Shown: one piece after another, positions 23,237 to 43,197 of the stretch
How the letters are laid out: each line of letters begins with the position of its first letter
Numbering within the stretch: position 1 is the first letter of the stretch
From: Betaproteobacteria bacterium Ga0077540
GTDB taxonomy: Bacteria > Pseudomonadota > Gammaproteobacteria > Burkholderiales > Methylophilaceae
Assembly: GCA_001464125.1 (NCBI GenBank)
Contig: LNEP01000007.1
Coordinates: 8,164-72,163, forward strand
DNA length: 64,000 nucleotides
Reading direction: 5' to 3'
Notes under the pieces: model-generated
Databases searched by the model: none
What the model saw: the letters and a program-made list of their open reading frames with translations, nothing else
Told to the model about the DNA's origin: nothing
Program-made: the position numbers and the translations under genes

Positions 23237-24700
23237 TTACGCAAAGCTCATCATGTCAACAAATTGATTCACAGGCGTTGCTTCTAGCTTGGCTTGGTCT
23301 AGGCAGAGATTCAAAATTTCTGCCTGTTTGTTGGCATCAAAACGGCGTGCCAAATTCACTTTAAATTTTTTCACCAATTCTGGAATGCCTTCACCTCGAC
23401 GGCGGCGATGACCAATCGGGTACTCTACTGCAATATTGCTAGAGCTTGTGCCATCTTTAAAGAACACTTGGATGGCGTTGGCAATCGAGCGTTTTTCTGG
23501 ATCATGGTAATCCTTGGTATATTCAGCTTTTTCAACACACACCATTTTCTCGCGGATGGCATCAATCCGTGGTTCAGCGGCGGCGGTATCTTCGTAATCT
23601 TGCGCGGTTAAACTGCCTTTGAGTAAACCAACGGCGGCCATGTATTGAATACAGTGATCGCGGTCTGCAGGGTTGTCGAGCGGCCCCGTTTTATCAATAA
23701 TGCGAATGGCTGACTCGTGCGTGGTAATCACGATTTTTTCAATTTGTGCGATTTTTTCTAGCGTTTGCAATTTGCTACCCACTTCTGCATTCAATTGAAA
23801 TGCACATTCCACTGCAGTTTGCGCATGGAACTCGGCCGGGAAGCTAATTTTGAACAACACTTGTTCCATCACATAACTGCCATATGGGCGTTGGAATTGA
23901 AAGGTATTGCCTTTAAACAATACATCATAAAAGCCCCAAGTTTTGGCGGTGAGTGCAGAAGGGTAGCCCATTTCACCTTGCAAGGTCATCCAAGCTAAAC
24001 GCACAGCGCGACTAGTCGCATCGCCCGCTGCCCATGATTTACGTGAGCCAGTGTTGGGCGAGTGGCGATAAGTGCGCAAGCTTTGCCCATCCACAAAGGC
24101 ATTAGACACGGCATTGATGATGTCTTCTTTATTGCCACCCAACAGTTTGGTGACTACGGCGGTGGAAGCGATTTTGACTAGAATCACATGGTCCAAGCCC
24201 ACACGGTTAAAGCTGTTCTCTAATGCCAGTACGCCTTGAATTTCGTGTGCTTTAATCATGGCAGTGAGTACGTCTTTGATGGTCAATGGTGCTTTGCCCT
24301 CAGTGATATTTTTGCGAGACATATAGTCTGCCACCGCTAAAATACCCCCTAAGTTATCCGATGGGTGACCCCATTCAGCGGCTAACCAAGTATCGTTAAA
24401 GTCTAACCAGCGTATCATCGCGCCAATATTGAATGCGGCCAAAATGGGATCAAGTTGATAATTTGTTCCTGGTACTTTGGCACCATTGGGCACCACTGTG
24501 CCAGCAACGACTGGGCCTAATAATTTGGTGCAAGCTGGGTAGTCCAAGGCCTCAAAACCGCAACCTAAGGTATCCATTAAGCAATTACGGGCAGTATCAA
24601 ATGCTTCGTCCGATTTGATTTCGTAATCGGCAACGTAGTTGGCAATGTCCACAATCACTTGATCGGGCGCGGGGCGAACGTTAGAAATGTGTGCACTCAT
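23237..24700 (-). CDS. prpD: 2-methylcitrate dehydratase
   Basis: [38 protein letters not shown] and [11 protein letters not shown]. Confidence 0.96.
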
Positions 24701-24753
24701 GTTTTAAGCCTTTTAATTTAAAATTTTGCGAATTAACTTTAATTTTCTGAAAG

Positions 24754-24873
24754 AAATGATTGGTAAGCGATGCAGTTCATGGCGCGCGGAGCGCGGAAAT
24801 CGGAGTGTACAAATAAGTTCATCAGGATTTCGAGCACCGCGTAACGCAGTAATGCGCGCTTAACAAATCATTT
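24754..24873 (+). repeat. RPE-1-like palindromic element, copy 2
   Basis: TIR aaatgattggtaagcg ... cgcttaacaaatcattt. The core GGAAATCGGAGTGTACaaataAGTTCATCAGGATTTCGAGCACCGCGTAACGCAG resembles the Rickettsia palindromic element 1 core. Abuts the prpC stop. Confidence 0.72.
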
Positions 24874-26044
24874 ACCGGTCTTTCAATGCTACAAAAGGAC
24901 GGTTATCTGGCCCCGTATACTCAGCATTCGGCCGAATAATCTTGTTATCAATGCGCTGTTCAATCGCGTGGGCAATCCAACCTGTGGTGCGGGAAATCAC
25001 AAATATCGGGGTGAACATGCCAGTGGGGATGCCCATCATGTGGTAGCTGGATGCGCTGTACCAATCGAGATTGGGGAACATTTTTTTCTCACGCCACATG
25101 GTTTCCTCAATACGAGCAGAGATGTCATATAGCTTCATATTGCCAGCCTCCTCACACAATGCTCGACTAACCGCTTTAATGGATTCATTTCGTGGGTCGG
25201 CAATGGTATACACAGGATGACCAAAGCCAATAATAATCTCCTTGCGCGCCATGCGTGCCATGATGTCGGCTTCCGCTTCATCTGCGTTCTCATAGCGTTC
25301 AATAATTTCCATGGCTGCCTCGTTGGCGCCACCATGTTTGGGACCACGCAAAGCGCCAATCGCACCAGTGATGCAAGAATACATATCAGACAAAGTGCCC
25401 GAAATAACGCGTGCCGTGAAGGTTGAGGCATTAAATTCATGCTCGGCATACAATACCAGTGAGGTGTTCATTGCCTTGACGTGAAGCGCAGATGGCTTTT
25501 TGCTATGCAAGATATGCAGGAAATGCGCAGCAATCGAGTCATCATCGGTTTCAACTTCAATGCGCACGCCTTTGTGGCTATAGTGATACCAGTAAATCAA
25601 GATTGAACCAAAGCAGGCAATCAGGCGATCGCCCAAGGTTTTAGCCGCTTCGGTATTTCGGTCAAGCGCCTCTGGCTCGAGTGTCCCCAGCATAGAGCAA
25701 CCGGTGCGCATCACATCCATCGGATGCGCATTGGCTGGAATCTGTTCCAATACGGTTTTAAGGGCATTGGGCAGGCCGCGTAGCTTTTTGAGCTTTTGAT
25801 GATACGCAGTGAGTTGTGCTTGATTGGGCAACTCGCCGTGTATCAACAAATGAGCGACTTCTTCAAACGTAGCCTGTTTGGCCAGTTCGATGATATCGTA
25901 ACCACGGTAATGCAAATCATTACCGGTGTGACCTACCGTGCAAATAGCGGTGCTTCCTGCGGAAACGCCCGCTAAGGCTACCCCTTTTTTCTTTTTCGGG
26001 GCTTCGGTCACAATGTCTGTCGTCGTGTTCATCACATTCTCCAT
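24872..26044 (-). CDS. prpC: 2-methylcitrate synthase
   Basis: KKGVALAGV...[36 protein letters not shown] and FPNLDW. Lies between prpB and prpD. Confidence 0.94.
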
Positions 26045-26050: not shown

Positions 26051-26929
26051 CTATTTTTTAAATAATGAATCGAGTTTTTGTTCGTAGGCGTGATACCCCA
26101 AATGATCGTAGAGCGCCATCCGTGTTTGCATGGTGTCCAGTACGTTTTTCTGCGTACCGTCTTTTTTCACCACTTGATACACATTTAAGGCAGCCTGATT
26201 CATGGCGCGGAACGCAGACAGAGGGTACAGCACCATGCTGACATCAGCTGTGGCTAACTCTTCCACCGTAAATAAGGGCGTAGAGCCAAATTCGGTGATG
26301 TTGGCCAGCACGGGCACGTTGACTGCATCTACAAATTGTTTGTACATACTGAGTTCAGTCATGGCTTCTGGGAAAATCATGTCAGCGCCTGCTTCCACAC
26401 AGGCACAGGCACGATCAATGGCTGATTGCAAACCTTCAACCGCCAACGCATCAGTGCGTGCCATCACCACAAAGTCATCATACGGTTTGGCATCTACCGC
26501 TGCTTTTACGCGGTCCACCATTTCTTCCAAACTCACAATCGCTTTATTGGGGCGGTGACCACAACGTTTTGCACTGACTTGGTCTTCAATATGGACAGCG
26601 GCCGCACCGGCTTTAGAGACACTTTTGATGGTGCGGGCGATGTTGAAAGCACCACCAAACCCAGTATCAATATCAACTAGCAGAGGCGTATCCACGGCAT
26701 CGGTAATGCGGCGTACATCCACCAGCACATCTTCTAAAGTAGAAATGCCTAAATCTGGCAAACCGAGCGAGCCAGCCGCCACACCACCACCTGATAAATA
26801 AATAGCTTTAAAACCAGATTGTGTGGCCAGCATGGCGTGATAGGCATTAATCGCGCCAATAATTTGTAACGGTTTTTCTGCCGCTATTGCGGCTCTGAAG
26901 CGGGCGCCTGCTGATAGTGAAGTTGTCAT
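26051..26929 (-). CDS. prpB: 2-methylisocitrate lyase
   Basis: KRCGHRP (MICL-type catalytic loop), YLSGGG and LANITEFG. Confidence 0.96.
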
Positions 26930-26949: not shown

Positions 26950-27948
26950 TTAATTAAAAAAGGCGAGGTTAGCCTCTTCAGAAATCGCCACGTTGGTGAG
27001 TTTGGCTTTTTGCAAAATCTCCCAGAAATAGCGATAGGTCGCTCGGTCATGCAGTTCGCCAGCGTATTGAATCGGTCCCCAATCGGCGGCTTGGGCAGCC
27101 AGTAAAATATTGGCGGCATCGGCTACTTCGTCGTAATTGGGTTTCATCGCGTCCACAATGGCTTGAATTTGCGTGGGGTAAATACTCCACATACGCATAA
27201 ACCCAAACTCATTTCGTGCTCGACTGGCATCGCTAAACGTGGTTTCTACATTTTTTAAATCCAGCGTCACGTTATGGGCAGGCACCACGCCATTTGCTAA
27301 TGCAGCTGAGACAACCTCGGTTTTGGCGCGCGCTAATAGGCGGTGGTCAAATTGTCCAGGGCTGCGCATCGCGCTGGCTGGGATTGCGCCATGATGCGCG
27401 CTGACAAAATCCATCAAGCCAAAATCCAACACTTGTAACCAAGGCAATTTAGCAATGTTGTGCACTTGGTTTAATGCGCCATGGGTTTCAATCAAAATAT
27501 GCACAGGAATCACGCGGCTGATGCCATTGGCTGCTGCTACTTTTTGGATGTAAGCAATCATTTCCTCGGCTTGGCTAATATCAGTACATTTAGGAATAGT
27601 GATATAGCTCAGCACGTTACCGGCACCGCCCACCAAAATATCAATGTCTTGTTTCCAAGCAGGGTGGGTGTAATCATGGATGCGAGCGCCTGCCATGTGG
27701 TATTTGTTGGCTTCAGAATTCAACACGCGCACGATCATTTCGGCATGGTCGCGCTCTTGCCCGCTGGCTGCGCCGTCCTCACAATCGCAAGTAATATCAA
27801 ATACTTGACCAATGGTGTCTTGTAACCCTAGAGCCTTGAGTATCAGCTTTTCGCTCCCTGCAAAGTGCTCACAGGCAGGGATGAGCGGAAACGGTTTTTC
27901 TCCGCCAAACAAGGCCTCGCTTGGATGTGGTTTTGTTGAATTGCTCAT
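26950..27948 (-). CDS. CitE/HpcH-superfamily acyl-CoA lyase (betaproteobacterial type)
   Basis: DCEDGA, ARIHD, LIET, FGLMDF, WSIYP.Q and C-terminal LHDRA with Asp. Substrate not determinable from sequence alone. Confidence 0.8.
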   Translation of the reverse strand: MSNSTKPHPSEALFGGEKPFPLIPACEHFAGSEKLILKALGLQDTIGQVFDITCDCEDGAASGQERDHAEMIVRVLNSEANKYHMAGARIHDYTHPAWKQDIDILVGGAGNVLSYITIPKCTDISQAEEMIAYIQKVAAANGISRVIPVHILIETHGALNQVHNIAKLPWLQVLDFGLMDFVSAHHGAIPASAMRSPGQFDHRLLARAKTEVVSAALANGVVPAHNVTLDLKNVETTFSDASRARNEFGFMRMWSIYPTQIQAIVDAMKPNYDEVADAANILLAAQAADWGPIQYAGELHDRATYRYFWEILQKAKLTNVAISEEANLAFFN

Positions 27949-27949: not shown

Positions 27950-29014
27950 TTATGGCTTTCTCCGTGGCATCAAGACGGTGTAATCAAGGTCAAGCACTAC
28001 ATTGGGGTGGTAGCCACCCTCAGTTTTTGCCTGTGAAATTTCTGCTGGGGTGATATTTTTTAGACCCACCATGCGCAAGCGCAAAGCACCAAATTGTGGG
28101 TGATGGGCTAATTGCAAACGCTCTAGCACTTCGGTGTAGGTGTAAATCGTATCGCCGGCATAGCTAGGATTAGCGTGCGTGCCGCCATTAATCGCTAAAA
28201 TTTGCAGTGCGTTTTCCAAGCCTTCGTAACTCAAAGCACGGCAAGCGGAAATGACCACGCCGCCATAGACCAAGCGTTGTTTCATGGGGTTGGTTGCCAT
28301 CATATGGGCATCAAAATGCAGACGTGCATTGTTTTGATACAAACGCGTGGCAAGTGAGTGGTCGCTATCGTTAATGGTCATGCCAGCAGGGTGGTCAATG
28401 CGTTCACCCACTTGGTAGTCTTCCCAAAAGTAGTGGCCACCGGTGGCGCTCGCTATTTCATGGTGAAAGCTAAGCGCATCAGGCGCTTGCAAGTGTGCTT
28501 CACTAACGGATACTGACAACTCGGGCACGACAGTTTCGGGTGCCGGTGCATTCAAATCACCTTTGTGCACCATGACCCAACGCACCCAACTTAATACCGG
28601 CGTTTGATGTTGATTAATGGTGGTTGAGCGTACCCATACCACCCCATTTTTGCCACTCGAGTTTTGTTTTAAGCCAATCACTTGGCTGGAGGTGCTGAGT
28701 GTATCGCCAGCAAATACAGGCTGTAAAAAACGCACATCGGCATAACCTAAATTGGCGACTGCGTTCACCGAAATATCCGGAACGGTTTTGCCAAACGCAA
28801 TATGAAACGCCAACAAATCATCGACCGGAGTGCTGGGATACCCTAATGAATGCGCAAATGGCGCACTGCAATGCAGTGGGTTGCGTTCGCCAGTCAGCGC
28901 AATGTACAAAGCGCTATCGCCCGTTGTGATGGTGCGTGGCGTGGCGTGTTGAATGACTTCGTTGAGTTTGAAGTCTTCAAAGTACCTGCCGCTATTAATT
29001 TTGGTATTGCTCAT
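27950..29014 (-). CDS. mch: Mesaconyl-C1-CoA hydratase (2-methylfumaryl-CoA hydratase), double MaoC hot-dog
   Basis: N.GRYFED, PRT, FHIAFGKTVPDISVNAVANLGYA, LYQNNARLHFD and YGGVVIS. These closely match Mch of the ethylmalonyl-CoA and 3-hydroxypropionate pathways as I recall it. Confidence 0.82.
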   Translation of the reverse strand: MSNTKINSGRYFEDFKLNEVIQHATPRTITTGDSALYIALTGERNPLHCSAPFAHSLGYPSTPVDDLLAFHIAFGKTVPDISVNAVANLGYADVRFLQPVFAGDTLSTSSQVIGLKQNSSGKNGVVWVRSTTINQHQTPVLSWVRWVMVHKGDLNAPAPETVVPELSVSVSEAHLQAPDALSFHHEIASATGGHYFWEDYQVGERIDHPAGMTINDSDHSLATRLYQNNARLHFDAHMMATNPMKQRLVYGGVVISACRALSYEGLENALQILAINGGTHANPSYAGDTIYTYTEVLERLQLAHHPQFGALRLRMVGLKNITPAEISQAKTEGGYHPNVVLDLDYTVLMPRRKP

Positions 29015-29050: not shown

Positions 29051-29932
29051 TTAAATAAACTCTTCTTCTAGTTCAGCAATCGCTTCATGCAGCTGAATCA
29101 AGCGTTGTGCGGCTTTAATGTGATGGTGTTCTACCAATTTGTCGTTCACCACCACGGTGCCTTGCCCAGAAGCGTTGGCCTCTTTTAATGCTTTAATAAT
29201 TTCTCTTGCGTGCGCAACTTCGGTTGCTTTTGGCGTGTAGGCATCGTTGCAATAGGCAATTTGTGCAGGGTGCACCAGCGATTTACCATCCATGCCCATG
29301 TCGCGACCCAAGCGGCAAGCATATTCAAATGAGTGCATGTTTTTAAAATCACTGGTGATCCCATCAATCACACAGCGGCCATAGGCGCGTGCTGCCAAGA
29401 TTACCAAAGATAACGAAGTGAGGATGGCGGAGCGCTCATGCGTGACATGCGCATGCAATTGAGAAATCAAATCGGATGTCGCCATCACGATACATATAAT
29501 ACGGTCAGATGCCGATGCAATTTCTTTTGCGTTAAGCACAGCAATCGGGCTTTCAATCATCACCATAATTGGTACATCTTTCCCGCCGGCGTCATCCAAT
29601 GCTTGTTGTGCCCTTAGGACATCTTCACGTGACTCTATATTCGGAAACAAAATTGCATCAGCACCAATATTGGCCACAGCTTTAATATCATCTGCGCCCC
29701 AAATGGAGTCTAAGTCGTTGACGCGCACTACTACTTCACGTTTACCGTACCCACCTTGTTTAACTGCAGCCACAACGTTTTCACGGGATTGGATTTTGGC
29801 ATCAATCAAGATGGGGTCGCCCAAATCAAGTATCACTGAGTCTGCAGCCAATGTGCGAGCGCGTTCCAAGTAGTGTGTGTTGCAGCCTGGTACATACAGC
29901 ATTGAACGTCTGGGGCGTAAGCAGTATTCCAT
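29051..29932 (-). CDS. CitE-family enzyme, Mcl2-like (3S)-malyl-CoA thioesterase
   Basis: RPRRSMLYVPG, VVRVN, LAARAYG..IDG, GRDMGMDGK..HPAQ and a C-terminal KLVE with Glu as in Mcl2. The usual DLED motif is changed to DLGD. Confidence 0.72.
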   Translation of the reverse strand: MEYCLRPRRSMLYVPGCNTHYLERARTLAADSVILDLGDPILIDAKIQSRENVVAAVKQGGYGKREVVVRVNDLDSIWGADDIKAVANIGADAILFPNIESREDVLRAQQALDDAGGKDVPIMVMIESPIAVLNAKEIASASDRIICIVMATSDLISQLHAHVTHERSAILTSLSLVILAARAYGRCVIDGITSDFKNMHSFEYACRLGRDMGMDGKSLVHPAQIAYCNDAYTPKATEVAHAREIIKALKEANASGQGTVVVNDKLVEHHHIKAAQRLIQLHEAIAELEEEFI

Positions 29933-30010
29933 AGTATTTATCCAGTAATAGGTTGCAAATAAATGTTGATTGAAATCGATTATATAGACATCATTTCAAG
30001 TGTGTCAATA

Positions 30011-30037
30011 TATATCTTATGTCTTATATAAGATATA
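30011..30037. promoter_or_regulatory. GntR/SdhR-type operator in the divergent promoter region
   Basis: tatatcttat-gtcttat-ataagatata inverted repeat containing TCTTATGTCTTATATAAGA, the motif typical of betaproteobacterial mdh/gntR-sdh promoters. Confidence 0.8.
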
Positions 30038-30189
30038 AAACAGTAGACATGTGAATTTGCTCGTGATATAAATGCGTCTAACTAGCAAAGCATTCATCTT
30101 GCTGTGTCGATGCTAATTATATGAATCGCAAATAAGGGTGTTAATTAAAGCGTATGGGTCATGAAAATTTAATGCACAGGACAATCAAT

Positions 30190-30924
30190 ATGGATAAGCA
30201 ATTTAATTCTCCAAGCTACAGGCCGCTCTATGATCAAATCAAGGTGCTCATCACGCAAAGCCTGATTGGGGGTGAGTGGCGCCCAGGTGAGATGATTCCA
30301 AGTGAGGTGGATTTGGCTATGCGTTATAAGGTGAGTCAAGGCACGGTGCGAAAGGCCATTGATAGTTTGGCGACTGAGAATATTTTGATTCGTCGTCAAG
30401 GCAAAGGCACATTCGTAGCAACGCATAAAGAGGATGACATTAAGTTACGTTTTTTGCGCTTGACCGCGGAAAATGGCCAAAAAGAGTTGCTGCAAAACGA
30501 GTTTTTATCTTGCGAGAAAACTAAAGCTAATGCCCATATTTCCAAAGTATTGGATATCAAGGCAGGTGCAGCCACCATTGAAGTGAAGCGTATGCTTACC
30601 TTTTCCGGCAGGCCGCTTATTTATGACCACATTATTGTGCCCGCAGCACCTTTTAAAGGTTTGAATAGCGTAAAGGTGGAAGAAAGCAATGGTTCCATGT
30701 ACAGCATGTACGAGTCGCAGTTTGGCATTCGCATGATTCGTGCGGAAGAGCGCCTTAAAGCGGTGGGTGCAGAGAAAGAAGTGGCTAAATCCTTAGGTTT
30801 GCAAGATGGCTATCCATTATTAAGTATTGAGCGGGTGTCATTTACTTATGGCGATAAGCCGATGGAGTGGAGGTTGGGCTTATGCCTCACAGACGATCAT
30901 CACTATATGAGCGAGCTCGAATAA
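30190..30924 (+). CDS. GntR/HutC-family regulator (SdhR-type)
   Basis: PLYDQIK, IPSE..LA, VSQGTVRKAI and RRQGKGTFV, plus a C-terminal UTRA domain. Lies upstream of sdhCDAB. Confidence 0.9.
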   Translation: MDKQFNSPSYRPLYDQIKVLITQSLIGGEWRPGEMIPSEVDLAMRYKVSQGTVRKAIDSLATENILIRRQGKGTFVATHKEDDIKLRFLRLTAENGQKELLQNEFLSCEKTKANAHISKVLDIKAGAATIEVKRMLTFSGRPLIYDHIIVPAAPFKGLNSVKVEESNGSMYSMYESQFGIRMIRAEERLKAVGAEKEVAKSLGLQDGYPLLSIERVSFTYGDKPMEWRLGLCLTDDHHYMSELE

Positions 30925-31064: not shown

Positions 31065-32258
31065 ATGGACGATTTAAAGAAACGCGCGTTGGATTACCAC
31101 CAATTTCCTATTCCTGGGAAGTTGAGCGTGGAGTCATCCAAGCCTTGTACGACGCAAGATGATTTGTCATTGGCTTATACGCCGGGTGTTGCAGAGCCTG
31201 TGCGCGAGATTCATGCGGACCCAGCCAATGCTTACAAATACACCAACAAAGGCAATTTAATTGCGGTAATTACCGATGGTACGGCAGTGCTGGGCTTGGG
31301 TGATATGGGTGCGCTGGCGAGTAAGCCTGTGATGGAGGGCAAAGCGGTATTGTTTAAGCGCTTTGCAGGTATTGATGTGTTTGATATTGAAGTGAATGCG
31401 AAAACACCGGATGAGTTTATCCAAACCGTGGTCAATATTGCGCCTACATTTGGCGGTATTAACTTAGAAGACATTGCTGCGCCCCACTGTTTCTACATTG
31501 AAGATGAATTAAAAAAACGCCTAGATATTCCAGTATTTCATGACGATCAGCACGGTACCGCTGTGATTGTTGCAGCTGCGTTACTGAACGCGTTAGAGCT
31601 CCAAGGCAAAACGCTCGCCCGCGCCAAGATAGTGTTTTTAGGCGCGGGTGCGGCGGGTTGTTCTTGTGCAAAGCTGCTCAAATTGATGGGTGCCACCAAC
31701 ATTACCATGGTGGATAGAACAGGTGTACTCGATACCAACCGTGCAGATCTGCATGACAATAATCGTGAGTTAGCAGTAGCACCTTCATCCAATAAAACCT
31801 TGGCAGACGTGATGCCCGATGCAGATGTGTTTATTGGCGTGTCCGCCAAAAATGCGCTAGATGCAAGCTTGATTAAAGCGATGGCCAAAAATCCTGTTGT
31901 GTTTGCTTTGGCCAACCCAGACCCAGAAGTCTTGCCCAGCGCTGCCTTTGCCGTGCGCGATGACTTGATTATGGCCACTGGTCGCAGCGATTTTCCTAAC
32001 CAAGTGAATAACGCGCTGTGCTTTCCATACCTGTTTAGAGGTGCATTGGATGCCAAAGCCAAAAAAATCACCGATAAGATGAAAGTGGCCGCTGCCAAAG
32101 CGCTCAGTGCGCTGGCGCGTGAGCCAGTGCCTGCAGAAGTATTGGCAGCATATCAATTGCAGTCTTTAAGCTTTGGCAAAGATTACATTATTCCAAAGCC
32201 TTTTGATCCAAGGTTGATGAACTATGTATCCACCGCAGTGGCAGAGGCGGCCGAATGA
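31065..32258 (+). CDS. Malic enzyme, short form without the PTA domain
   Basis: LSLAYTPGVA, DGTAVLGLG, PVMEGK, NLEDI, FHDDQHGTA, GAGAAG and ATGRSDFPNQVNN. Confidence 0.93.
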   Translation: MDDLKKRALDYHQFPIPGKLSVESSKPCTTQDDLSLAYTPGVAEPVREIHADPANAYKYTNKGNLIAVITDGTAVLGLGDMGALASKPVMEGKAVLFKRFAGIDVFDIEVNAKTPDEFIQTVVNIAPTFGGINLEDIAAPHCFYIEDELKKRLDIPVFHDDQHGTAVIVAAALLNALELQGKTLARAKIVFLGAGAAGCSCAKLLKLMGATNITMVDRTGVLDTNRADLHDNNRELAVAPSSNKTLADVMPDADVFIGVSAKNALDASLIKAMAKNPVVFALANPDPEVLPSAAFAVRDDLIMATGRSDFPNQVNNALCFPYLFRGALDAKAKKITDKMKVAAAKALSALAREPVPAEVLAAYQLQSLSFGKDYIIPKPFDPRLMNYVSTAVAEAAE

Positions 32259-32644
32259 TTGCAAAAAAACCCATCAAGCAACGACCAAAGAATCTAAACC
32301 TGTTCACGATTCGTTTGCCGATTAATGCGGTGGTTTCGATTATGCATCGGGCCAGCGGTGTAGTGCTTTTCTTAATGCTGCCGGCCGTGTTGTGGGTGTT
32401 GCAGCAATCATTAGCCAGTGAGGCGGATTACTTGAGGATTTCAAGCGGCTTTCAGCATTGGGTGTTTAAGTTGATTTTGATTGGCATGGCTTGGGCATTC
32501 TTTCACCACTTTTTTGCAGGTATACGCCATTTAGCCATGGACGTGCACTGGATGACCAGCTTACAAAAAGCGCGATTTTCCAGCCGAGTGGTGCTGTGGT
32601 TGGTGGGGTTGTCTGTAGCGATGTTTGCTTGGTGTATTTGGTAA
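32255..32644 (+). CDS. sdhC: Succinate dehydrogenase cytochrome b556 subunit
   Basis: RPKNL, SIMHRASG and HFFAGIRHL. Confidence 0.94.
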   Translation: MIAKKPIKQRPKNLNLFTIRLPINAVVSIMHRASGVVLFLMLPAVLWVLQQSLASEADYLRISSGFQHWVFKLILIGMAWAFFHHFFAGIRHLAMDVHWMTSLQKARFSSRVVLWLVGLSVAMFAWCIW

Positions 32645-32650
32645 GCGATT

Positions 32651-33001: not shown

Positions 33002-33006
33002 CGCAT

Positions 33007-34767: not shown

Positions 34768-34769
34768 TT

Positions 34770-35522
34770 ATGAAATTTTCGATTTATCGCTATAACCCCG
34801 ATACAGACAAAAAACCTTACATGCAAGATTATGACATTGCATTGGAGGACAGCGACCAAATGTTGTTGGATGCATTGGTGCGCATTAAGCAAGTAGACGA
34901 GACCTTGAGTTTGCGTAAATCCTGCCGTGAAGGCGTATGTGGCTCAGACGCCATGAACATCAATGGCAAGAATGGACTTGCCTGTATCACCAAGTTATCC
35001 GATTTAGATGAGCCTGTGGTGCTACGTCCTATGCCAGGTTTGCCGGTGATTCGTGATTTGGTGGTGGACATGACGCAGTTTTTTGACCACTACAACTCAA
35101 TTAAGCCTTATTTAGAAAACAACGATCCGCCACCGGAAACCGAGCGTCTACAAAGCCCAGAAGATAGGGCAAAATTAGATGGTCTGTACGAGTGCATTTT
35201 GTGTGGTGCATGCACCACCTCTTGCCCAAGTTTCTGGTGGAACCCAGATAAATTTGTAGGGCCAGCTGGCTTGATGCAAGCCTACCGTTTTATTGCAGAT
35301 TCACGCGATCAAGCGGAGGAGGAGCGCTTGGAAAACTTGGAAGATCCCTATCGTTTGTACCGTTGCCACAACATTATGAACTGTACAGATGTGTGTCCGA
35401 AAAAGCTCAACCCGAATGCTGCGATTGCCGCCATTAAAGATTTAAAAATAGAACGCGCTAAAGAACATAAGGATGCGCAACCAAAAACCGGTAAAAAGAT
35501 ATTCGGCATCAAAGTGTTATAA
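34770..35522 (+). CDS. sdhB: Succinate dehydrogenase iron-sulfur subunit
   Basis: SCREGVCGSD, CILCGACTTSCP and CHNIMNCTDVCP. Confidence 0.98.
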   Translation: MKFSIYRYNPDTDKKPYMQDYDIALEDSDQMLLDALVRIKQVDETLSLRKSCREGVCGSDAMNINGKNGLACITKLSDLDEPVVLRPMPGLPVIRDLVVDMTQFFDHYNSIKPYLENNDPPPETERLQSPEDRAKLDGLYECILCGACTTSCPSFWWNPDKFVGPAGLMQAYRFIADSRDQAEEERLENLEDPYRLYRCHNIMNCTDVCPKKLNPNAAIAAIKDLKIERAKEHKDAQPKTGKKIFGIKVL

Positions 35523-35531
35523 GGGGGAGCC

Positions 35532-35819
35532 ATGTTAAACGCAGAAATCATGCAAGACGCAGAACAAAGACGCTTAGCATGGCGTTGCCGGCGTGGCATG
35601 CTGGAGTTGGATATTGTGTTGCAGCGCTTTGTGAGTGAGCAGTTTGGTGATCTGACACTGGCCGAGATGCAGATATTCGATGAAATGCTTGAACTCGCAG
35701 ATAACGATTTTTGGGAGCTGATACAAAGCGCCGAGCAAGTGAACTATGAGGCGGATGTGCAAAATGTATTACGTAAATTAAGCATTGCCAGTCAGCAAAA
35801 CACACAGGGGGAAGCATGA
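35532..35819 (+). CDS. sdhE: FAD assembly factor SdhE
   Basis: WRCRRGMLELD. Confidence 0.93.
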   Translation: MLNAEIMQDAEQRRLAWRCRRGMLELDIVLQRFVSEQFGDLTLAEMQIFDEMLELADNDFWELIQSAEQVNYEADVQNVLRKLSIASQQNTQGEA

Positions 35820-36952
35820 TACAACACCATCATATTGGCGAAGAGCCGATTGCGCTCGATGCACGCGCCCTAGGCGATTACTGGCCTGGCATTCAGTTGT
35901 ACTATCCACCCGTTAAATATGCCCCAAGTTTGGGTATATACGAGGACATGGACCAAGCGTCAGCACGCATGAAAAAACATGCGCACTTTACCAATGCCCA
36001 TACCCTGATTTTTGACTTGGAAGACGGCTGTCGCCAAAAAGAAATGAGCCGTGAGTTGCTGCGCAAAGAGTTGCCGCAGCTCAGAAAAATCAATGAACGC
36101 GTCACCATTGCCATTCGCGCCAATTCGTTCCGTACCGATGAGTACGAGGAAGATATGAAGCTAGTGCGCGATATGGGCGAATATATTGATGTGGTGATGC
36201 TGGCCAAAGCTGGCGAGGCTTACGGCGCTGCAGAAGTCCGCGATTTGTCTAGCTTTTTAATCAGTGTGAATCCAGAAATCACGATTCAGCCGATTATCGA
36301 ACATCCAAAGTCGCTCAAAATTGCACCGGAACTAATGCAATACAACACAGTGAAGCATGTGGTGTTTGGTATTCACGATTTCTCCAAAGCAATGGGTATT
36401 CATATCACCCCAGAAAACTGGATTGAAGAGCTGTTCTACTTTATTAACCAACTGCTATTTGAAGCACGTATTGCCGGTAAAGGTGTGATTGGTGGGGTAG
36501 AAACGCTGATTGGCAGCAATATCATGCCAGAAAAGTTCCTGGAGCCACATGATGTGCGCCGTTGGTTAGATTTGCATGGCGATAATGAATCGCGCGTGGT
36601 GTACAAGCATGCTTGCAAAGAAGCAGCCATGGGCTTAACTGGCAAACAGGTGATTCATCCTGGACATATTCATTTATGCAAAACCGCTTACACGCCATCT
36701 CCCACCGAAATTACGCAGAAAGTTAGCATTTTGAAGGCGGCGATTGAAGCTGATGCTTTGTTGGGTGGGGCTATTAAATTTGAGGGTGAAATGCTAGACC
36801 CACCCATGTTTGGTAAAGCATTGCAAACCCTGTTACGCGCACATGCCTTGCGTGCGCTAAAAACCAGCGATATGGAATTTGCGCTACATGTATTGCAGTT
36901 GTTGCCGGCGCAAGTGGTGCGTCAGAACTGGCCATATGGAGTACTTTTATAA
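35816..36952 (+). CDS. CitE/HpcH-superfamily acyl-CoA lyase (divergent, 378 aa)
   Basis: FDLEDG, IRAN, IIEHP, FGIHDF, GKQVIHP and GEMLD with Asp. Translationally coupled to sdhE and to the ligase. Confidence 0.8.
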   Translation: MIQHHHIGEEPIALDARALGDYWPGIQLYYPPVKYAPSLGIYEDMDQASARMKKHAHFTNAHTLIFDLEDGCRQKEMSRELLRKELPQLRKINERVTIAIRANSFRTDEYEEDMKLVRDMGEYIDVVMLAKAGEAYGAAEVRDLSSFLISVNPEITIQPIIEHPKSLKIAPELMQYNTVKHVVFGIHDFSKAMGIHITPENWIEELFYFINQLLFEARIAGKGVIGGVETLIGSNIMPEKFLEPHDVRRWLDLHGDNESRVVYKHACKEAAMGLTGKQVIHPGHIHLCKTAYTPSPTEITQKVSILKAAIEADALLGGAIKFEGEMLDPPMFGKALQTLLRAHALRALKTSDMEFALHVLQLLPAQVVRQNWPYGVLL

Positions 36953-38598
36953 TGTTTACACAGTTTCCTCAATGGGTTTGGAACATTCCCGGTTACTTCA
37001 ATATCGGCGTGGCTTGCACTGATACGCACCTCAACACTTCGCGAGCCGATATCGTGGCCATGATTGTGGAGGACGATGCCTTAGGTACGTCCAGCATCAC
37101 CTTTGCGGAGTTAGCACAGCGTACAGATCAGTTTGCGCAAGTGCTGCGTAATTTAGGGGTGAAGGTGGGCGACCGCGTGCTGATTCGCTTGCCCAATAGT
37201 TTGGATTATCCCATTGCATTTTTGGGCGCCATGAAAATGGGTGCGATTTCGGTACCAACCTCCACCTTGCTCACGGCAGAAGAGGTGGCGTATCTGGCAA
37301 AAGACTCTGGTGCAACCGTATTGGTGACCGATGCGGCAGCTTGGAATGTAATGGCGGATGAAATTACCAAAAACACAGCCGATATTGCCAATTTAAAACA
37401 CGTGCTGGTGACTCAGTTGGAAAGTGTTTCAGAGTTCAAATCTCCCGCAGGTTTAAATGTACAAGGCCTTGAAGACAGCATCTTAGACATCCAACAAGTG
37501 GAACCCGCGCATGCCACCAAAGCCGACGATCCAGCCTATCTGGTGTATACCTCTGGTACGACGGGTTATCCTAAAGGCGTATTGCATGCGCACCGTGCGT
37601 TGCTAGGCCGCCAGCCCGCAGCTCAGTATTGGTTTAATTACAGCGAGCAGATTCAAGACCGTATCATGCACTCCGGCAAGTTCAACTGGACCTATGTGCT
37701 AGGGACTGGCCTAATGGATCCCTTGTATTTAGGCAAAACAGTGATTGTGCATGAGGGCAAAAATGATGCACAAAAATGGTTGGACCTGATTAACAAACAT
37801 CAAGCCACTATTTTTATTGGGGTGCCGACCATTTACCGCCAACTCCTTCAAAAAACAACCGCTACGCAGGCCGATATTCCAAGCTTGCGCCATTACATGA
37901 GTGCTGGCGAGCATTTGTCTGACGAGGTGCTGGAACAATGGCGCACTCGCTTTGGTTTGGATATTTATGAAGCGGTGGGCATGAGCGAGTTTTCCTATTA
38001 CTTATCCCAGAGTAAATACCGGCCAATCCGTCCCGGTTCTGCTGGCTTTCCACAACCTGGACATGATGTGCAATTGCTTAACCCAGAAACACTACAGCCA
38101 GTGCCTGTGGGCGAAGAAGGTATGATTTGCGTCAAAGATACTGACCCTGGTTTATTTTTACGGTATTGGAATTTAGACGAAGAAACCGCCAAATATAAGC
38201 ACGATGGCTACTTTTTCTCTGGCGATTACGCAAAATATGATGCCGATGGCTACATTTGGTTCTTAGGGCGTAAGGATGACATTATCAAAAGCTTTGGTTA
38301 TCGCGTCTCGCCCTATGAAATTGAACGTGTTTACAAAGGGCACCCAGCGGTCGCCGATTGTGCAGCGGTGGGGGAAGAGATTGAGAAAGACAAATTGCTG
38401 GTGGTGATTTATGTGATTCCCAAAGCCGATATAACTGTAAACCCAGATGAATTGTTGGCCTATGGCAAACAACATTTGGCGGCTTATAAATCCCCCAAAA
38501 CGGTGTATGTGGCCAAGGATTTCCCGCGCACCAAGAATGGTAAAATATTGCGTAAAGATATCAGCCCAACTATTGCCACTGCAAAAAGCTCAAGATGA
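36952..38598 (+). CDS. Acyl-CoA synthetase (AMP-forming; medium-chain/aromatic-ligase-like)
   Basis: YTSGTTGYPKG, SAGE, GMSE, SGD, GRKDD and PRTKNGK. Confidence 0.9.
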   Translation: MFTQFPQWVWNIPGYFNIGVACTDTHLNTSRADIVAMIVEDDALGTSSITFAELAQRTDQFAQVLRNLGVKVGDRVLIRLPNSLDYPIAFLGAMKMGAISVPTSTLLTAEEVAYLAKDSGATVLVTDAAAWNVMADEITKNTADIANLKHVLVTQLESVSEFKSPAGLNVQGLEDSILDIQQVEPAHATKADDPAYLVYTSGTTGYPKGVLHAHRALLGRQPAAQYWFNYSEQIQDRIMHSGKFNWTYVLGTGLMDPLYLGKTVIVHEGKNDAQKWLDLINKHQATIFIGVPTIYRQLLQKTTATQADIPSLRHYMSAGEHLSDEVLEQWRTRFGLDIYEAVGMSEFSYYLSQSKYRPIRPGSAGFPQPGHDVQLLNPETLQPVPVGEEGMICVKDTDPGLFLRYWNLDEETAKYKHDGYFFSGDYAKYDADGYIWFLGRKDDIIKSFGYRVSPYEIERVYKGHPAVADCAAVGEEIEKDKLLVVIYVIPKADITVNPDELLAYGKQHLAAYKSPKTVYVAKDFPRTKNGKILRKDISPTIATAKSSR

Positions 38599-40100
38599 CC
38601 ATCGTTAAACAAGAAGACTTTATCCAAAGCGTTGCCGACGCCTTGCAATATATATCCTACTACCACCCAGAAGACTATATTCAAGCGCTAGGTGAAGCGT
38701 ATGCCATTGAGGAGTCCCCTGCTGCTAAAGATGCGATTGCACAAATTTTAACCAACTCGCGTATGTGCGCAGAAGGCAAGCGACCCTTATGCCAAGACAC
38801 AGGGATTGTGGTGGCATTTGTCAAAGTCGGTATGGATGTTAGGTTTGAGAGCCAACTCAGTTTAGAGGCGATGGTGAATGAAGGGGTGCGCCGAGCTTAT
38901 TTACATCCAGACAACACCTTACGCGCCAGTATTGTGAACGACCCAGCTGGGCTTCGCAAAAACACCACAGACAATACACCTGCCATTACCCATGTGGAAT
39001 TGGTTCCGGGTAATACTGTTGAGGTGACGGTAGCTGCCAAAGGCGGTGGTAGCGAGAATAAAGCCAAACTGGCCATGCTGAACCCAAACGACAGTATTGT
39101 CGATTGGGTATTAGAAGTCGTGCCGACCATGGGCGCCGGTTGGTGTCCACCTGGTATGCTAGGGATAGGCATTGGCGGTAGCGCAGAAAAAGCCATGCTG
39201 TTAGCCAAAGAATCCCTCATGCAACCAATTGATATGCATGTATTAAAAGTCAAAGGCCCGAGCAACCGCATCGAAGAGTTACGCTTAGAGTTATATGAAA
39301 AAGTGAATGCATTAGGCATTGGGGCGCAAGGTTTAGGTGGCTTAACCACCGTGCTGGATATTAAGATTTTAGATTACCCCACCCATGCCGCCAGTTTGCC
39401 GGTAGCGATTATTCCCAACTGTGCGGCCACGCGCCATGTGCACTTTATCTTGGATGGCACTGGGGTGACAGAATTAACACCGCCTAATATGGATGTGTAT
39501 CCCAATGTGCACTGGGCGCCCAGTGCACAAGCCAAAAGGGTGAATGTTGATAGCGTTACCAAAGCGGATACGCAGAGCTGGCAAGCAGGCGAGACCTTAT
39601 TGCTCACGGGCAAAATACTTACTGGGCGTGATGCCGCGCACAAGCGTATTGCCAATATGTTGGCCAAAGGCGAAGCGCTGCCTGTAGATTTTACCAATCG
39701 TTTTATTTACTACGTAGGCCCTGTTGATGCGGTGCGTGATGAAGCGGTAGGCCCAGCTGGCCCGACCACAGCGACGCGCATGGATGACTACACCGAAATG
39801 ATGCTTAACACTGGTTTGTTAGGCTCTATCGGCAAAGCTGAACGCGGCGATGACGCACTCGCTGTGATGGCGAAATATCAATCCGTGTATTTAATGGCCG
39901 TAGGTGGCGCAGCATATTTGGTGAGTAAAGCCATTAAAAAATCACGTGTGGTGGCGTTTGCTGATTTAGGTATGGAAGCCATTTATGAATTTGATGTGGT
40001 CGATATGCCTGTGACGGTGGCGGTGAGTGCCAATGGGGAATCGGTACATAAAACCGGTCCAGCGCAGTGGCAGCAAAAAATTGCTATCAAACAATTGTAA
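38595..40100 (+). CDS. Class I (Fe-S) fumarate hydratase, possible mesaconase
   Basis: PLCQDTG, KGGGSEN, GWCPPG, NCAATRH, GRDAAH and GPTTATRM. Confidence 0.93.
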   Translation: MTIVKQEDFIQSVADALQYISYYHPEDYIQALGEAYAIEESPAAKDAIAQILTNSRMCAEGKRPLCQDTGIVVAFVKVGMDVRFESQLSLEAMVNEGVRRAYLHPDNTLRASIVNDPAGLRKNTTDNTPAITHVELVPGNTVEVTVAAKGGGSENKAKLAMLNPNDSIVDWVLEVVPTMGAGWCPPGMLGIGIGGSAEKAMLLAKESLMQPIDMHVLKVKGPSNRIEELRLELYEKVNALGIGAQGLGGLTTVLDIKILDYPTHAASLPVAIIPNCAATRHVHFILDGTGVTELTPPNMDVYPNVHWAPSAQAKRVNVDSVTKADTQSWQAGETLLLTGKILTGRDAAHKRIANMLAKGEALPVDFTNRFIYYVGPVDAVRDEAVGPAGPTTATRMDDYTEMMLNTGLLGSIGKAERGDDALAVMAKYQSVYLMAVGGAAYLVSKAIKKSRVVAFADLGMEAIYEFDVVDMPVTVAVSANGESVHKTGPAQWQQKIAIKQL

Positions 40101-40110
40101 ATGTTTGACT

Positions 40111-40207: not shown

Positions 40208-40513
40208 ATGTTAAAACGCATATACTGGTTAAGCTTCATGTTCTTTTCGCTGAATCTTCATGCGGAAAGCATGTTGGATTATTTAACGGATAGCCATGGT
40301 AAATACATCGGCCCCACGGTTGAAGATCAAGTGGCGCTGATGGACAAAGACCGCAACGGATTTGCGGATGTATTTGAAGTGCGTGCTTACTTAGAAAAGC
40401 AGCACGGCGTTGGTTACCAAAAAGAATTGTTGGATAGATGGGAGGCTTCTGCCAGCGGTAAAAGCTGCAGTACCCCATTTGCCAAAGAGTTATATTCAGA
40501 TAGTACAAATTAG
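40208..40513 (+). CDS. Small secreted protein with an EF-hand-like loop
   Basis: Signal peptide ending LHA-E and the loop DKDRNGFADVFE. Confidence 0.7.
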   Translation: MLKRIYWLSFMFFSLNLHAESMLDYLTDSHGKYIGPTVEDQVALMDKDRNGFADVFEVRAYLEKQHGVGYQKELLDRWEASASGKSCSTPFAKELYSDSTN

Positions 40514-40605
40514 CCTAAACACAGAGTTTTTACATATGTGAAACTTTTAACTGTTTTAGGCTGGTTTATAATAGATTTAGTTATTTTAATTCGAGCCTAA
40601 ACACC

Positions 40606-43197
40606 ATGTTAAAAGCGTATGAAGCCCACGTGCAAGAACGTGCTGCACAACAATTACCTCCATTACCATTAAATGCCGAGCAAGTTGCCGAACTGGTTGA
40701 CTTGCTAAAATCACCCCCAGCCGGACAAGAGGCATTGCTGCTTGAATTGTTGGCTAACCGCATTCCTGCAGGTGTAGATCAAGCTGCTTATGTCAAAGCC
40801 GCATTTTTGGCCGATATTGCCAAAGGCAATGCCAGCTCACCACTGGTGAATGCTGAAAAAGCCGTTGCGTTATTGGGCACTATGTTAGGTGGTTACAACG
40901 TGCAAGCATTAGTGGAACTGCTGGATACCAATATGGCAGCACATGCGGTGACTGCATTATCAAACACTATCTTGATGTTTGATGCCTTTCATGATGTAGA
41001 TGCAAAAATGAAAGCGGGTAATTTACACGCAAAAAAACTCATGGAATCATGGGCCAATGCAGAGTGGTTTACCAGCAAGCCAGTGTTAGCCGATGCCATT
41101 AAAGTCGTGGTGTTTAAAGTGGATGGCGAAACCAATACCGATGATTTAAGCCCAGCGCAAGAGGCTTGGAGCCGTCCAGACATTCCATTGCATGCCAAAG
41201 CCATGCTAGTGAATAAAATGCCAGATGGTTTAAACATCATTGAAACATTGAAACAAAAAGGCCTGCCGTTGGCGTATGTGGGTGATGTGGTAGGTACAGG
41301 CTCTTCACGTAAATCTGCCATTAACTCGGTGCAATGGTTTATGGGCAATGACATTCCTAATATCCCGAATAAACGCACGGGTGGTGTAGTCATGGGTGGC
41401 AAAATTGCCCCAATTTTCTTCAACACTGCAGAAGATTCAGGCGCATTTCCGATTCAATGCGATGTATCAAAGTTAAATACGGGGGATGTCATCACGATTA
41501 AACCTTACGAAGGCAAAGTATTGTCCGAGTCTGGTGAAGTGATTTCGACATTTGAGCTAAGCCCGATTACCATGCCAGACGAAGTACGTGCAGGCGGACG
41601 TATACCTTTAATTATTGGCCGTGGTTTAACCACCAATGCACGTAAAGCGCTAGGCTTATCAGAGCCAGATATCTTTATCACTGCCACGCCAGCAATTGTT
41701 TCAAACAAAGGCTTTACCTTGGCGCAAAAAATGGTGGGGCGTGCTTGTGGCCTGCCAGAAGGTCAAGGCGTTCGCCCAGGCAGCTATTGCGAACCGAAAG
41801 CCACCACCGTGGGTTCGCAAGATACTACTGGCGGTATGACGCGCGATGAATTAAAAGAATTGGCTTGTTTGGGCTTTAGCAGCGATTTAGTCATGCAAAG
41901 CTTCTGCCATACGGCAGCTTACCCAAAACCAGTGGATATTAAACTTCAACATACTCTGCCTGAGTTTATGTCTAGCCGTGGCGGCGTCAGCTTAAAACCG
42001 GGCGATGGTGTGATTCACTCCTGGCTTAACCGTATGATTCTGCCAGATACCGTAGGCACGGGTGGCGATTCACATACCCGCTTCCCAATCGGTATTTCGT
42101 TCCCTGCGGGTTCTGGTTTGGTTGCGTTTGCTGCGGCTACAGGGGCGATGCCTTTAGATATGCCTGAATCAGTATTAGTGCGTTTTAAAGGCACCATGCA
42201 GCCGGGCATCACTCTGCGTGATTTGGTGAATGCCATTCCTTATGCCGCGATTCAAGAGGGCACATTAACGGTAGGCAAACAAGGTAAGAAAAATGTCTTC
42301 AACGGCCGTATTTTAGAAATTGAAGGCTTGCCAGACTTAAAAGTGGAGCAAGCGTTTGAGTTTGCTGACGCTTCTGCCGAACGTTCCGCCAACGGTTGTA
42401 CTGTGTTGCTTAACAAAGAGCCAGTGATTGAGTTCCTCAATTCTAATATCGTGCTGATGCAAAACATGATTGAAAATGGCTATCAAGATGCACGCACTTT
42501 GCAACGCCGTATCGAGAATATGCAAGCATGGCTAGCTAAGCCGGAACTGCTACAACCGGATGCGGATGCGGAATACGCGCATGTGATTGAAATTGATTTA
42601 AATGAAATCAAAGAGCCATTGGTGGCCTGCCCGAATGACCCCGATGACATCAAACCATTGTCTGCTGTGGTTGGTGATAAAATTGACGAAGTGTTTATTG
42701 GTAGTTGCATGACCAATATCGGGCATTATCGTGCGGCGGCTAAAGTGTTGGATGGCGCTGGCAATATTCCAACGCGTTTATGGATTGCGCCGCCCACACG
42801 TATGGATGAAGCACAGCTGCGTGATGAAGGCGTCTATTCCACTTTTGGTGTTGCAGGTGCGCGCACAGAAGTGCCCGGCTGTTCACTCTGTATGGGTAAC
42901 CAAGCACGAGTAGCGGACAAAGCCACCGTATTTTCTACCAGCACACGTAACTTTGATAACCGCATGGGCAAGGATGCGCGCGTGTATTTAGGGTCAGCTG
43001 AGTTAGCGGCAGTATGTGCTAAGTTAGGCCGTATGCCTACGCATGCTGAGTACCTAGAAACGGTTGGCAATAAATTGGCGAATACTGCTGAAATTTATAA
43101 GTACTTGAATTTTCACCAAATGACTGAATACAAAGCAGCTTTGGATACTTTAAGCTCAGGTAAAAAAGTGATTGCCATCGCAGCGGCTGTTGAATAA
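40606..43197 (+). CDS. acnB: Aconitate hydratase B / 2-methylisocitrate dehydratase
   Basis: N-terminal HEAT-like domain, [34 protein letters not shown] and [10 protein letters not shown]. Confidence 0.97.

Follow-up and report, generated by a model that had tools for sequence, protein, structure and literature searches.

The methylcitrate cycle (MCC) cluster of Methylophilaceae has been published for Methylotenera mobilis (mmol_0748-0766) and M. versatilis (m301_0686-0703) (PMC3728764, PMC4109929). It is strongly expressed in situ, with the orthologue of its GntR regulator among the most over-expressed cluster genes in Methylotenera, and its role and the metabolite processed 'remain unknown' (PMC3728764). 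Later papers label the cluster propionate oxidation, and orthologues of two of its genes, encoding a CitE-type protein (CitE-378, see below) and an acyl-coenzyme A (CoA) ligase, rise with dissolved organic matter in OM43 (PMC5120137). The stretch of DNA analysed here, referred to as the window, comprises 64,000 nucleotides (positions 8,164 to 72,163 of contig LNEP01000007.1) of Betaproteobacteria bacterium Ga0077540, a 2.33-Mb Methylophilaceae assembly that is 88.6% complete and whose closest named relatives are Methylotenera sp. N17, Methylophilaceae bacterium 11 and Methylophilus metagenome-assembled genomes. The window contains another member of the MCC cluster, with the same genes in the same order. 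No structural difference is involved; the ligase gene, prpE in the literature, does not pass the PrpE test here, and the published 'mdh' encodes a malic enzyme. The reading favoured in this study, to which a probability of about 40% is assigned, is that the cluster makes propionyl-CoA and glyoxylate from acetyl-CoA and pyruvate by a citramalate cycle that is closed by the MCC. A first-pass annotation of the sequence had proposed this wiring, rightly stating that methylcitrate genes were already known in Methylotenera (PMC3728764), and had considered the wiring to be the new part.

That last claim has to be withdrawn, since the same route beside the MCC was drawn in 2007 for the homologous cluster ab1917-ab1921 of Arcobacter butzleri as 'TCA, methylcitrate and citramalate cycles' (TCA, tricarboxylic acid; Miller et al. 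2007, PMC2147049), and a 2021 review describes the MCC as one way of closing the citramalate cycle (PMC8307300). Miller et al. named malyl-CoA hydrolase and lyase, beta-methylmalyl-CoA lyase, mesaconyl-CoA hydratase, mesaconyl-CoA synthetase, citramalate hydrolase and citramalate lyase as the enzymes (PMC2147049). A. butzleri RM4018 resembles the window in having two CitE genes, a ligase, an Mch-like hydratase, a class I fumarase and a citramalate route beside the MCC; by the paper's own account it differs in that the ligase is fused to a CitE domain and the prp genes, of the acnD/prpF type, lie elsewhere (PMC2147049). This ligase-CitE fusion was not recovered in the search for longer fused forms of CitE-293. 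In the literature search, no paper applying the citramalate-methylcitrate wiring to Methylophilaceae was found. The cluster is therefore known and the idea of the wiring is old, and the contribution made here consists of sharper enzyme assignments and new contextual support: the recurrence of the module, a residue-level division of the CitE paralogues, the linkage of the fumarase, the acetate genes at the flanks and an operator comparison are added over published accounts.

Further described systems share parts of the route. The isocitrate-lyase-independent citramalate cycle proposed for Rhodospirillum rubrum (Ivanovsky 1997; PMC8307300) likewise leads from acetyl-CoA and pyruvate via citramalate, mesaconate, mesaconyl-CoA and beta-methylmalyl-CoA to glyoxylate and propionyl-CoA, but there propionyl-CoA returns by way of methylmalonyl-CoA mutase and a CoA transfer activates mesaconate, whereas closure by the MCC and ATP-dependent activation are proposed here. 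The haloarchaeal methylaspartate cycle (PMC5592240) has in common the conversion of mesaconate via mesaconyl-C1-CoA and beta-methylmalyl-CoA to propionyl-CoA and glyoxylate as well as paralogues of a CitE-type lyase and malate synthase. It differs in forming mesaconate from glutamate via a B12-dependent glutamate mutase, in using a succinyl-CoA:mesaconate CoA-transferase instead of a ligase, and in sending propionyl-CoA through the mutase route, for which no mutase was found in the source genome. The 'apparent malate synthase' Mcl1/Mcl2 of Rhodobacter sphaeroides pairs a CitE lyase with a paralogous CitE thioesterase, and the Glu that marks Mcl2 is found in one window protein (CitE-293); the Chloroflexus 3-hydroxypropionate bi-cycle, which has a lyase of its own, shares Mch (PMC3832036). 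In contrast to these two systems, the residue equivalent to Glu44 is additionally Gly in CitE-293, neither CitE-332 nor CitE-378 is an Mcl1 orthologue, both falling into other subgroups that are uncharacterised, and the search of the source genome gave no homologue of Mct or Meh and no family III CoA transferase.

According to the favoured reading, the module would act on C5-dicarboxylyl-CoA esters around mesaconyl-C1-CoA and beta-methylmalyl-CoA. A CitE lyase, for which CitE-378 is the best guess by adjacency, would condense acetyl-CoA and pyruvate to (S)-citramalyl-CoA, and thioester hydrolysis to (S)-citramalate by CitE-293 would pull the reaction. Citramalate would be converted to mesaconate by the class I fumarase, mesaconate to mesaconyl-C1-CoA by the AMP-forming ligase, and mesaconyl-C1-CoA to beta-methylmalyl-CoA by Mch, before CitE-332, whose gene adjoins those of Mch and PrpB, would release glyoxylate and propionyl-CoA. 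PrpC, PrpD, AcnB and PrpB would then turn propionyl-CoA and oxaloacetate into pyruvate and succinate, and oxaloacetate would be regenerated by Sdh, fumarase and Mqo, the latter encoded elsewhere. The net conversion of acetyl-CoA and oxaloacetate to glyoxylate and succinate would equal the sum of citrate synthase, aconitase and isocitrate lyase. Glyoxylate and a second acetyl-CoA would give malate via lyase and thioesterase, from which malic enzyme could return pyruvate. The ligase-thioesterase pair would stand in for the CoA transferases of the related pathways, and the whole unit would be governed by the GntR regulator of the betaproteobacterial sdh locus. We infer all of these steps, only those of Mch and the MCC by close homology and the others from gene content, adjacency and context. 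The wiring assigns a role to every gene and offers a candidate gene for each step of the citramalate cycle.

The five accessory genes, encoding CitE-378, CitE-332, CitE-293, the ligase and Mch, constitute one conserved functional module. Of 120 Methylophilaceae genomes sampled, 70 (in 27 of 41 genera, and with genomes of 1.3 Mb among them) have an orthologue of CitE-378; in most of these, the CitE-293 gene gives a second, weak match at a distance of 6.5-7.5 kb. Conservation of the cluster had been put forward as a check by the first-pass annotation; the gene order proved unvarying across ~60 Methylophilaceae loci. In a search for related loci, the best 80 of at least 570 were all from Methylophilaceae. 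The module also recurs outside the family: of 300 genomes sampled from the class, six that represent five other families have a CitE-378 orthologue at 68-80% identity. A stand-alone cluster with unrelated flanks, CitE332 <-> CitE378-ligase-CitE293like-Mch, is found in genomes G238, G391 and G200, and G346 holds the module together with malic enzyme, GntR and prpBCD but without sdh. In G467, which represents a further family, CitE293-Mch-CitE332-prpB stands at the sdh locus and CitE378-ligase 520 kb away; four relatives of G467 without the CitE293-Mch-CitE332 piece are also without CitE-378. The CitE-378 gene adjoins the ligase gene in every genome seen, including the most distant cluster, where the pair has an alpha/beta hydrolase beside it and no Mch within 8 kb.

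The gene neighbourhoods extend these associations to the fumarase and to acetate metabolism. Downstream of CitE378-ligase in G467, beyond an amidohydrolase and a UPF0114 gene, lies a gene for a class I fumarase that shares 68% identity with that of the window. Because this linkage is located away from sdh and prp, and because the Arcobacter cluster ends in a class I fumarase as well, the fumarase is linked to the module itself and not to sdh alone. Class I fumarase is present in 7/8 module genomes, and all module genomes carry PrpB or methylmalonyl-CoA mutase. On another contig of G238 (C15), a class I fumarase and a methylmalonyl-CoA mutase are encoded 5 kb apart. The acs gene is divergent to CitE-378 in G467, and pta and ackA directly follow Mch on the same strand in G238 (L004 8087-11376), which links the module to acetate or acetyl-CoA in two independent families.

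The three CitE paralogues, designated by their lengths in amino acids, were compared with the seven residues that are conserved across the CitE-like superfamily and malate synthases, namely Asp42, Glu44, Asp45, Arg76, Glu141, Asp168 and the lid residue Asp299 in the numbering of R. sphaeroides malyl-CoA lyase (PMC3832036). The sole exception within the superfamily is the Mcl2 malyl-CoA thioesterase group, with Glu at the lid position (Zarzycki and Kerfeld, PMC3832036). Both CitE-332 (63 distinct orthologues, lid residue Asp301) and CitE-378 (82 distinct orthologues) retain all seven catalytic and metal-site residues without variation. In CitE-293 the lid Asp is replaced by Glu268, a Glu that is shared by 66/69 orthologues, and Gly38 occupies the position equivalent to Glu44; its relatives in the stand-alone modules carry Gln and Asn at the lid and metal positions. 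The best PDB matches of CitE-293 are Mcl-type lyases (122-124 bits), and the insertion specific to malyl-CoA lyase (~30-40 residues after beta-strand 6) is absent from CitE-293, being gapped in the alignment with 4L9Y. The feature of the Mcl2 group is thus found in CitE-293 and not in CitE-332, the placement of CitE-293 being by one diagnostic residue from PMC3832036 and not by direct Mcl2 orthology. CitE-293 is probably a beta-hydroxyacyl-CoA thioesterase acting on malyl-CoA, citramalyl-CoA or both. The division into one thioesterase-type and two lyase-type proteins given in the first-pass annotation agrees with these residue patterns, with the thioesterase mark on the 293-aa and not the 332-aa protein. 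An in-frame CitE293::Mch fusion was encountered on a single metagenome contig, without the N-terminal part of the CitE domain, and was considered too thin to use.

The substrates of the two lyase-type proteins can be proposed from their gene neighbours only as candidates. Against 4L9Y, CitE-332 and CitE-378 reached 55 and 39 bits, respectively, which is no close similarity to malyl-CoA lyase; a malyl-CoA lyase activity of the CitE proteins would be compatible with their failing the features of that group. CitE-332 falls into the PDB 3QQW/3R4I subgroup, which consists of structural-genomics entries without assigned function, and is by adjacency a candidate beta-methylmalyl-CoA/malyl-CoA lyase. 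By the same token, CitE-378 is a candidate (S)-citramalyl-CoA lyase or citramalate-forming enzyme. Its family is small and sharply bounded: the 1.84 billion cluster representatives searched include about six full-length clusters with 41-51% identity, after which come generic CitE proteins at ~30%. An AlphaFold2 (AF2) model of CitE-378 with a predicted local distance difference test (pLDDT) score of 88.9 is nearest to malyl-CoA and citramalyl-CoA lyases at ~20% identity; an earlier model built from six close sequences was poor (pLDDT 61). Foldseek ranked malyl-CoA lyase, Mtb CitE, CLYBL and Ccl alike at this level of identity, so that no substrate was called, and haloarchaeal malate synthase was outside the top 50 matches to the model. 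The CitE family comprises more than 20 paralogous groups with overlapping substrates, and for one CitE enzyme the in vitro conversion of acetyl-CoA and pyruvate to citramalyl-CoA has been described (bioRxiv 10.1101/322404).

The hydratase of the window is of the Mch type, whether its regiospecificity is C1 or C4. It matches PDB 4E3E (E 2e-120) and MeaC of M. extorquens (8HGN, E 4e-105) over the full length, has the double hot-dog fold and contains the motif QN...HF, which aligns with the catalytic residues Asn226 and His231 of MeaC. The ligase scored 179 bits against the PrpE model TIGR02316 (cut-off 827), in accordance with the earlier observation that there is no typical PrpE. The best match to this profile in the genome, the Acs gene located outside the cluster, is with 508 bits below the cut-off as well, so that the profile search of the source genome found no dedicated propionate-CoA ligase PrpE. 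The best PDB match of the ligase is benzoate-CoA ligase (232 bits); as it is without a close characterised relative, no substrate was called, and it is regarded as a candidate mesaconate-CoA ligase. The class I fumarase of the cluster is the only fumarase found in the source genome, in which neither fumC nor a second class I copy was found, and is a candidate for a dual fumarase and mesaconase. Class I fumarases hydrate mesaconate (PMC4682846). The MCC enzymes PrpC, PrpD, AcnB and PrpB all exceed curated equivalog cut-offs.

The genome-wide absence of aceA, ccr and sucAB had been put forward as a check by the first-pass annotation; isocitrate lyase, ccr and sucA were not found in the source genome at its 88.6% completeness, malate synthase, methylmalonyl-CoA mutase and ActP were not found there either, and Mqo is present outside the cluster. 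Isocitrate lyase occurs in 0/8 module genomes compared with 84/300 (28%) in the class sample, a difference that is not significant, and the module-bearing genome G467 does have isocitrate lyase, so that the anticorrelation was dropped as support. Malate synthase is present in the module genomes G200 and G238, and ccr is absent from all module genomes examined.

The two divergent operons share one predicted operator, as had been proposed: the perfect 12-bp palindrome TCTTATATAAGA in the divergent spacer, which occurs once in the 2.33-Mb genome. It is found in 66/66 distinct CitE293|GntR spacers and is located 14 nt upstream of a 12/12 sigma-70 consensus promoter of the minus operon. Directly upstream of sdhCDAB in 8/8 loci from other Burkholderiales families stands an orthologous regulator (45-58% identity), and in these 8/8 loci TCTTATATAAGA precedes sdh at 0 or 1 mismatch as a predicted operator. 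The designation of the operator as SdhR-type agrees with this arrangement. In eight other Burkholderiales families (L112-L119), prpBCD is frequently divergent from gntR-sdhCDAB-sdhE-gltA and shares TCTTATATAAGA. This betaproteobacterial locus resembles that of the window in the orthologous regulator, the identical operator core, the sdh genes and often the divergent prp operon, but in Methylophilaceae CitE378-ligase-fumA-orf107-acnB occupies the place of gltA, and CitE293-Mch-CitE332 stands ahead of prpB. From the shared regulator, palindrome and divergent prpBCD it follows that the Methylophilaceae cluster is a remodelled version of a widespread sdh/prp locus. Some of the loci L112-L119 have a CitE332-like gene (40-51% identity) alongside, with the rest of the module missing.

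A one-mismatch copy of TCTTATATAAGA is located at G000:C1:29990-30001, ~205 bp upstream of aceE, which encodes pyruvate dehydrogenase E1. It is among only three genomic sites within one mismatch of the operator core. Five other cluster-positive genera have it at the aligned position; 10/10 cluster-negative Methylophilaceae genomes and five more distant cluster-positive ones lack it. This distribution suggests that the GntR regulator of the sdh locus also controls pyruvate dehydrogenase in this branch. The site may be part of a general regulon of the sdh regulator and was not counted toward the wiring.

Several points weigh against the favoured reading. Enzyme specificity is not readable from these sequences, the lyases being assigned to their steps solely by adjacency, and the fold search on the CitE-378 model does not separate malyl-CoA from citramalyl-CoA lyase. 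The route costs two ATP equivalents and a thioester, and citramalyl-CoA lyases favour cleavage. The tight pairing of CitE-378 and ligase, together with the distant pair that has a hydrolase and no Mch, fits cleavage of the ligase product by CitE-378, which is the opposite direction. Pta-AckA, moreover, runs both ways. As regulator and operator are generic to sdh loci, co-regulation says little on the wiring, and the absences reported for the source genome are provisional because its assembly is only 88.6% complete; the isocitrate lyase counts and the gene in G467 given above belong here as well. Finally, A. butzleri carries the module yet does not grow on acetate (PMC2147049). Of the wiring as originally proposed, the conservation of the module, its linkage to fumarase and acetate genes and the lack of another evident route to propionyl-CoA thus speak in its favour, whereas the enzyme specificities and the direction of flux are inferred only.

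The same enzymes could instead serve the catabolism of external branched C5-dicarboxylates, an alternative regarded as unlikely. Mesaconate, or citramalate via the fumarase, would be imported and converted by ligase, Mch and a CitE lyase to propionyl-CoA and glyoxylate, the MCC would burn propionyl-CoA, and glyoxylate and acetyl-CoA would give malate by CitE lyase and thioesterase. No thermodynamically uphill condensation would be required, and this would fit a cluster that is induced in situ and responds to dissolved organic matter instead of C1 substrates. According to Kronen & Berg (2015, PMC4682846), a class I fumarase-mesaconase serves growth on mesaconate in Burkholderia xenovorans. Yet no transporter gene is located in or beside the cluster or the stand-alone modules, the module is retained in 1.3-Mb genomes of obligate methylotrophs, acetate-activating genes flank it in two families, and two canonical lyases are strictly conserved where one would suffice. 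A reversed flux, from glyoxylate and propionyl-CoA through beta-methylmalyl-CoA, mesaconyl-C1-CoA, mesaconate and citramalate to citramalyl-CoA (by the ligase) and on to acetyl-CoA and pyruvate (by CitE-378), is quite improbable. It would amount to glyoxylate assimilation like that of the 3-hydroxypropionate bi-cycle and is the direction that Miller et al. favoured for Arcobacter (PMC2147049). It would, however, compete for propionyl-CoA with PrpC of the same operon and leave the joining of the genes into the prpBCD operon unexplained, and no evident source of propionyl-CoA or glyoxylate was found in the genome (no isocitrate lyase, methylmalonyl-CoA mutase or PrpE). What argues for it is the CitE378-ligase pairing, the distant relative without Mch nearby included, which fits ligase followed by lyase, as well as the favoured cleavage of citramalyl-CoA; the CitE-293 relatives with Gln and Asn at the lid and metal positions might also act on a non-hydroxy ester such as mesaconyl-CoA.

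Ordinary propionate oxidation, in which the MCC would oxidise external propionate activated by Acs while CitE proteins, Mch and ligase would remove toxic or mis-made CoA esters (itaconyl-, citramalyl- and malyl-CoA) that inhibit cycle enzymes, is given only a slight chance. A true Acs is encoded in the genome, and Acs enzymes often accept propionate. Furthermore, prpBCD divergent from GntR-sdh is widespread in Burkholderiales without the module, published annotations call the cluster propionate oxidation, and two relatives of CitE, CLYBL and RipC, have a part in itaconate detoxification. Strict conservation of five genes, with 68-80% identity between families for three, would nevertheless be much for repair, and Mch specifically implies the pair mesaconyl-C1-CoA/beta-methylmalyl-CoA, the cleavage of which gives propionyl-CoA. 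The Methylotenera literature, in addition, calls the metabolite of the pathway unknown (PMC3728764).

The genes of the window were typed via a listing of open reading frames (ORFs) and NCBIfam/Pfam scans, by which every gene named in the first-pass annotation was recovered in its place (Table 1). The minus operon (29932 down to 23237) runs in the order CitE-293, Mch, CitE-332, prpB, prpC and prpD, and the plus operon (30154-43197) in the order GntR, malic enzyme, sdhCDABE, CitE-378, ligase, class I fumarase, a 107-aa ORF and acnB. Start and stop codons overlap or abut at the junctions malic enzyme/sdhC, sdhD/sdhA, sdhE/CitE-378, CitE-378/ligase, ligase/fumA and CitE-332/Mch. RNA contigs of two sediment metatranscriptomes span every part of the cluster, and near-identical ones bridge the junctions prpB/CitE-332, CitE-332/Mch/CitE-293, sdhB/sdhE/CitE-378 and CitE-378/ligase. 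These data are assembled contigs from libraries that may include DNA; they show presence and bridging, not transcript ends or levels, and count as weak evidence.

Table 1. Features of the MCC cluster in the window (positions within the 64,000-nt stretch; scores in bits with model cut-offs).
Feature	Position	Strand	Basis
prpD, 2-methylcitrate dehydratase	23237..24700	-	NF006943 889 bits, cut-off 575
prpC, 2-methylcitrate synthase	24872..26044	-	NF009006 680 bits, cut-off 550
prpB, methylisocitrate lyase	26051..26929	-	NF008455 540 bits, cut-off 353
CitE-332, 332 aa, putative CoA-ester lyase/synthase, 3QQW/3R4I subgroup	26950..27948	-	PDB 3QQW E 1e-151
Mch-type mesaconyl-C1-CoA hydratase / beta-methylmalyl-CoA dehydratase	27950..29014	-	PDB 4E3E, 8HGN matches; PF19315 + PF01575
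CitE-293, 293 aa, CitE paralogue with Mcl2 signature	29051..29932	-	lid Glu268; Mcl-type lyases best PDB matches
sigma-70 consensus promoter of CitE293-Mch-CitE332-prpBCD operon	29979..30008	-	TTGACA-18-TATAAT, 12/12; consensus match only
predicted operator palindrome TCTTATATAAGA within ~30-bp conserved block	30022..30033	.	66/66 distinct spacers
GntR/HutC-type regulator with UTRA domain	30154..30924	+	PF00392 + PF07702
malic enzyme, 397 aa, without PTA domain	31065..32258	+	PF00390 + PF03949; NF009501 521 bits
sdhC, sdhD, sdhA, sdhB, sdhE	32255..35819	+	TIGR02970, TIGR02968, TIGR01816 (959 bits), NF004616, NF008130
CitE-378, 378 aa, divergent putative CoA-ester lyase/synthase	35816..36952	+	PF03328; seven catalytic residues
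AMP-forming acyl-CoA ligase, not PrpE or Acs	36952..38598	+	PF00501 + PF13193
class I (Fe-S) fumarase	38595..40100	+	PF05681 + PF05683
conserved small ORF, 107 aa	40190..40513	+	position conserved; no family match
acnB, aconitase 2 / 2-methylisocitrate dehydratase	40606..43197	+	TIGR00117 1497 bits, cut-off 1287

The 107-aa ORF is kept between fumA and acnB in nearly all Methylophilaceae loci and matched no Pfam or NCBIfam family. Its N-terminus resembles a signal peptide, and one EF-hand-like loop, DKDRNGFADVFE, is present; it may encode a small secreted metal-binding protein, which would be odd within an operon of central metabolism. A 133-aa ORF at 43227-43628 (+) with a weak match to DUF7472 is located downstream of acnB in about half of the related loci and is convergent with a gene for a FabF-like ketosynthase at 43605-44864 (-).

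Since ~2008, the MCC cluster of Methylotenera and Methylophilus has been described as one of unknown role (PMC3728764), and its hosts are key consumers of methanol and methylamine in lakes, sediments, groundwater and the coastal ocean (OM43). The residue-level division into two lyases and one thioesterase makes for a short, concrete list of assays. If the module supplies propionyl-CoA and glyoxylate, these 'obligate' methylotrophs would contain a hidden C2/C3 cycle, which would explain the in-situ switch of their central metabolism, and the citramalate cycle would be revived as a real pathway. More doubtful, and put forward tentatively, is the possibility that Methylophilaceae and scattered other bacteria run a full ATP-driven 'citramalate-methylcitrate bicycle', independent of isocitrate lyase and 2-oxoglutarate dehydrogenase, from acetyl-CoA and oxaloacetate to glyoxylate and succinate. 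Together with malic enzyme and pyruvate dehydrogenase, such a bicycle would make full oxidation of acetyl-CoA possible; it would be a further natural route of acetyl-CoA assimilation beside the glyoxylate, ethylmalonyl-CoA and methylaspartate pathways, and the central carbon cycle that is activated in situ upon down-regulation of the ribulose monophosphate pathway.

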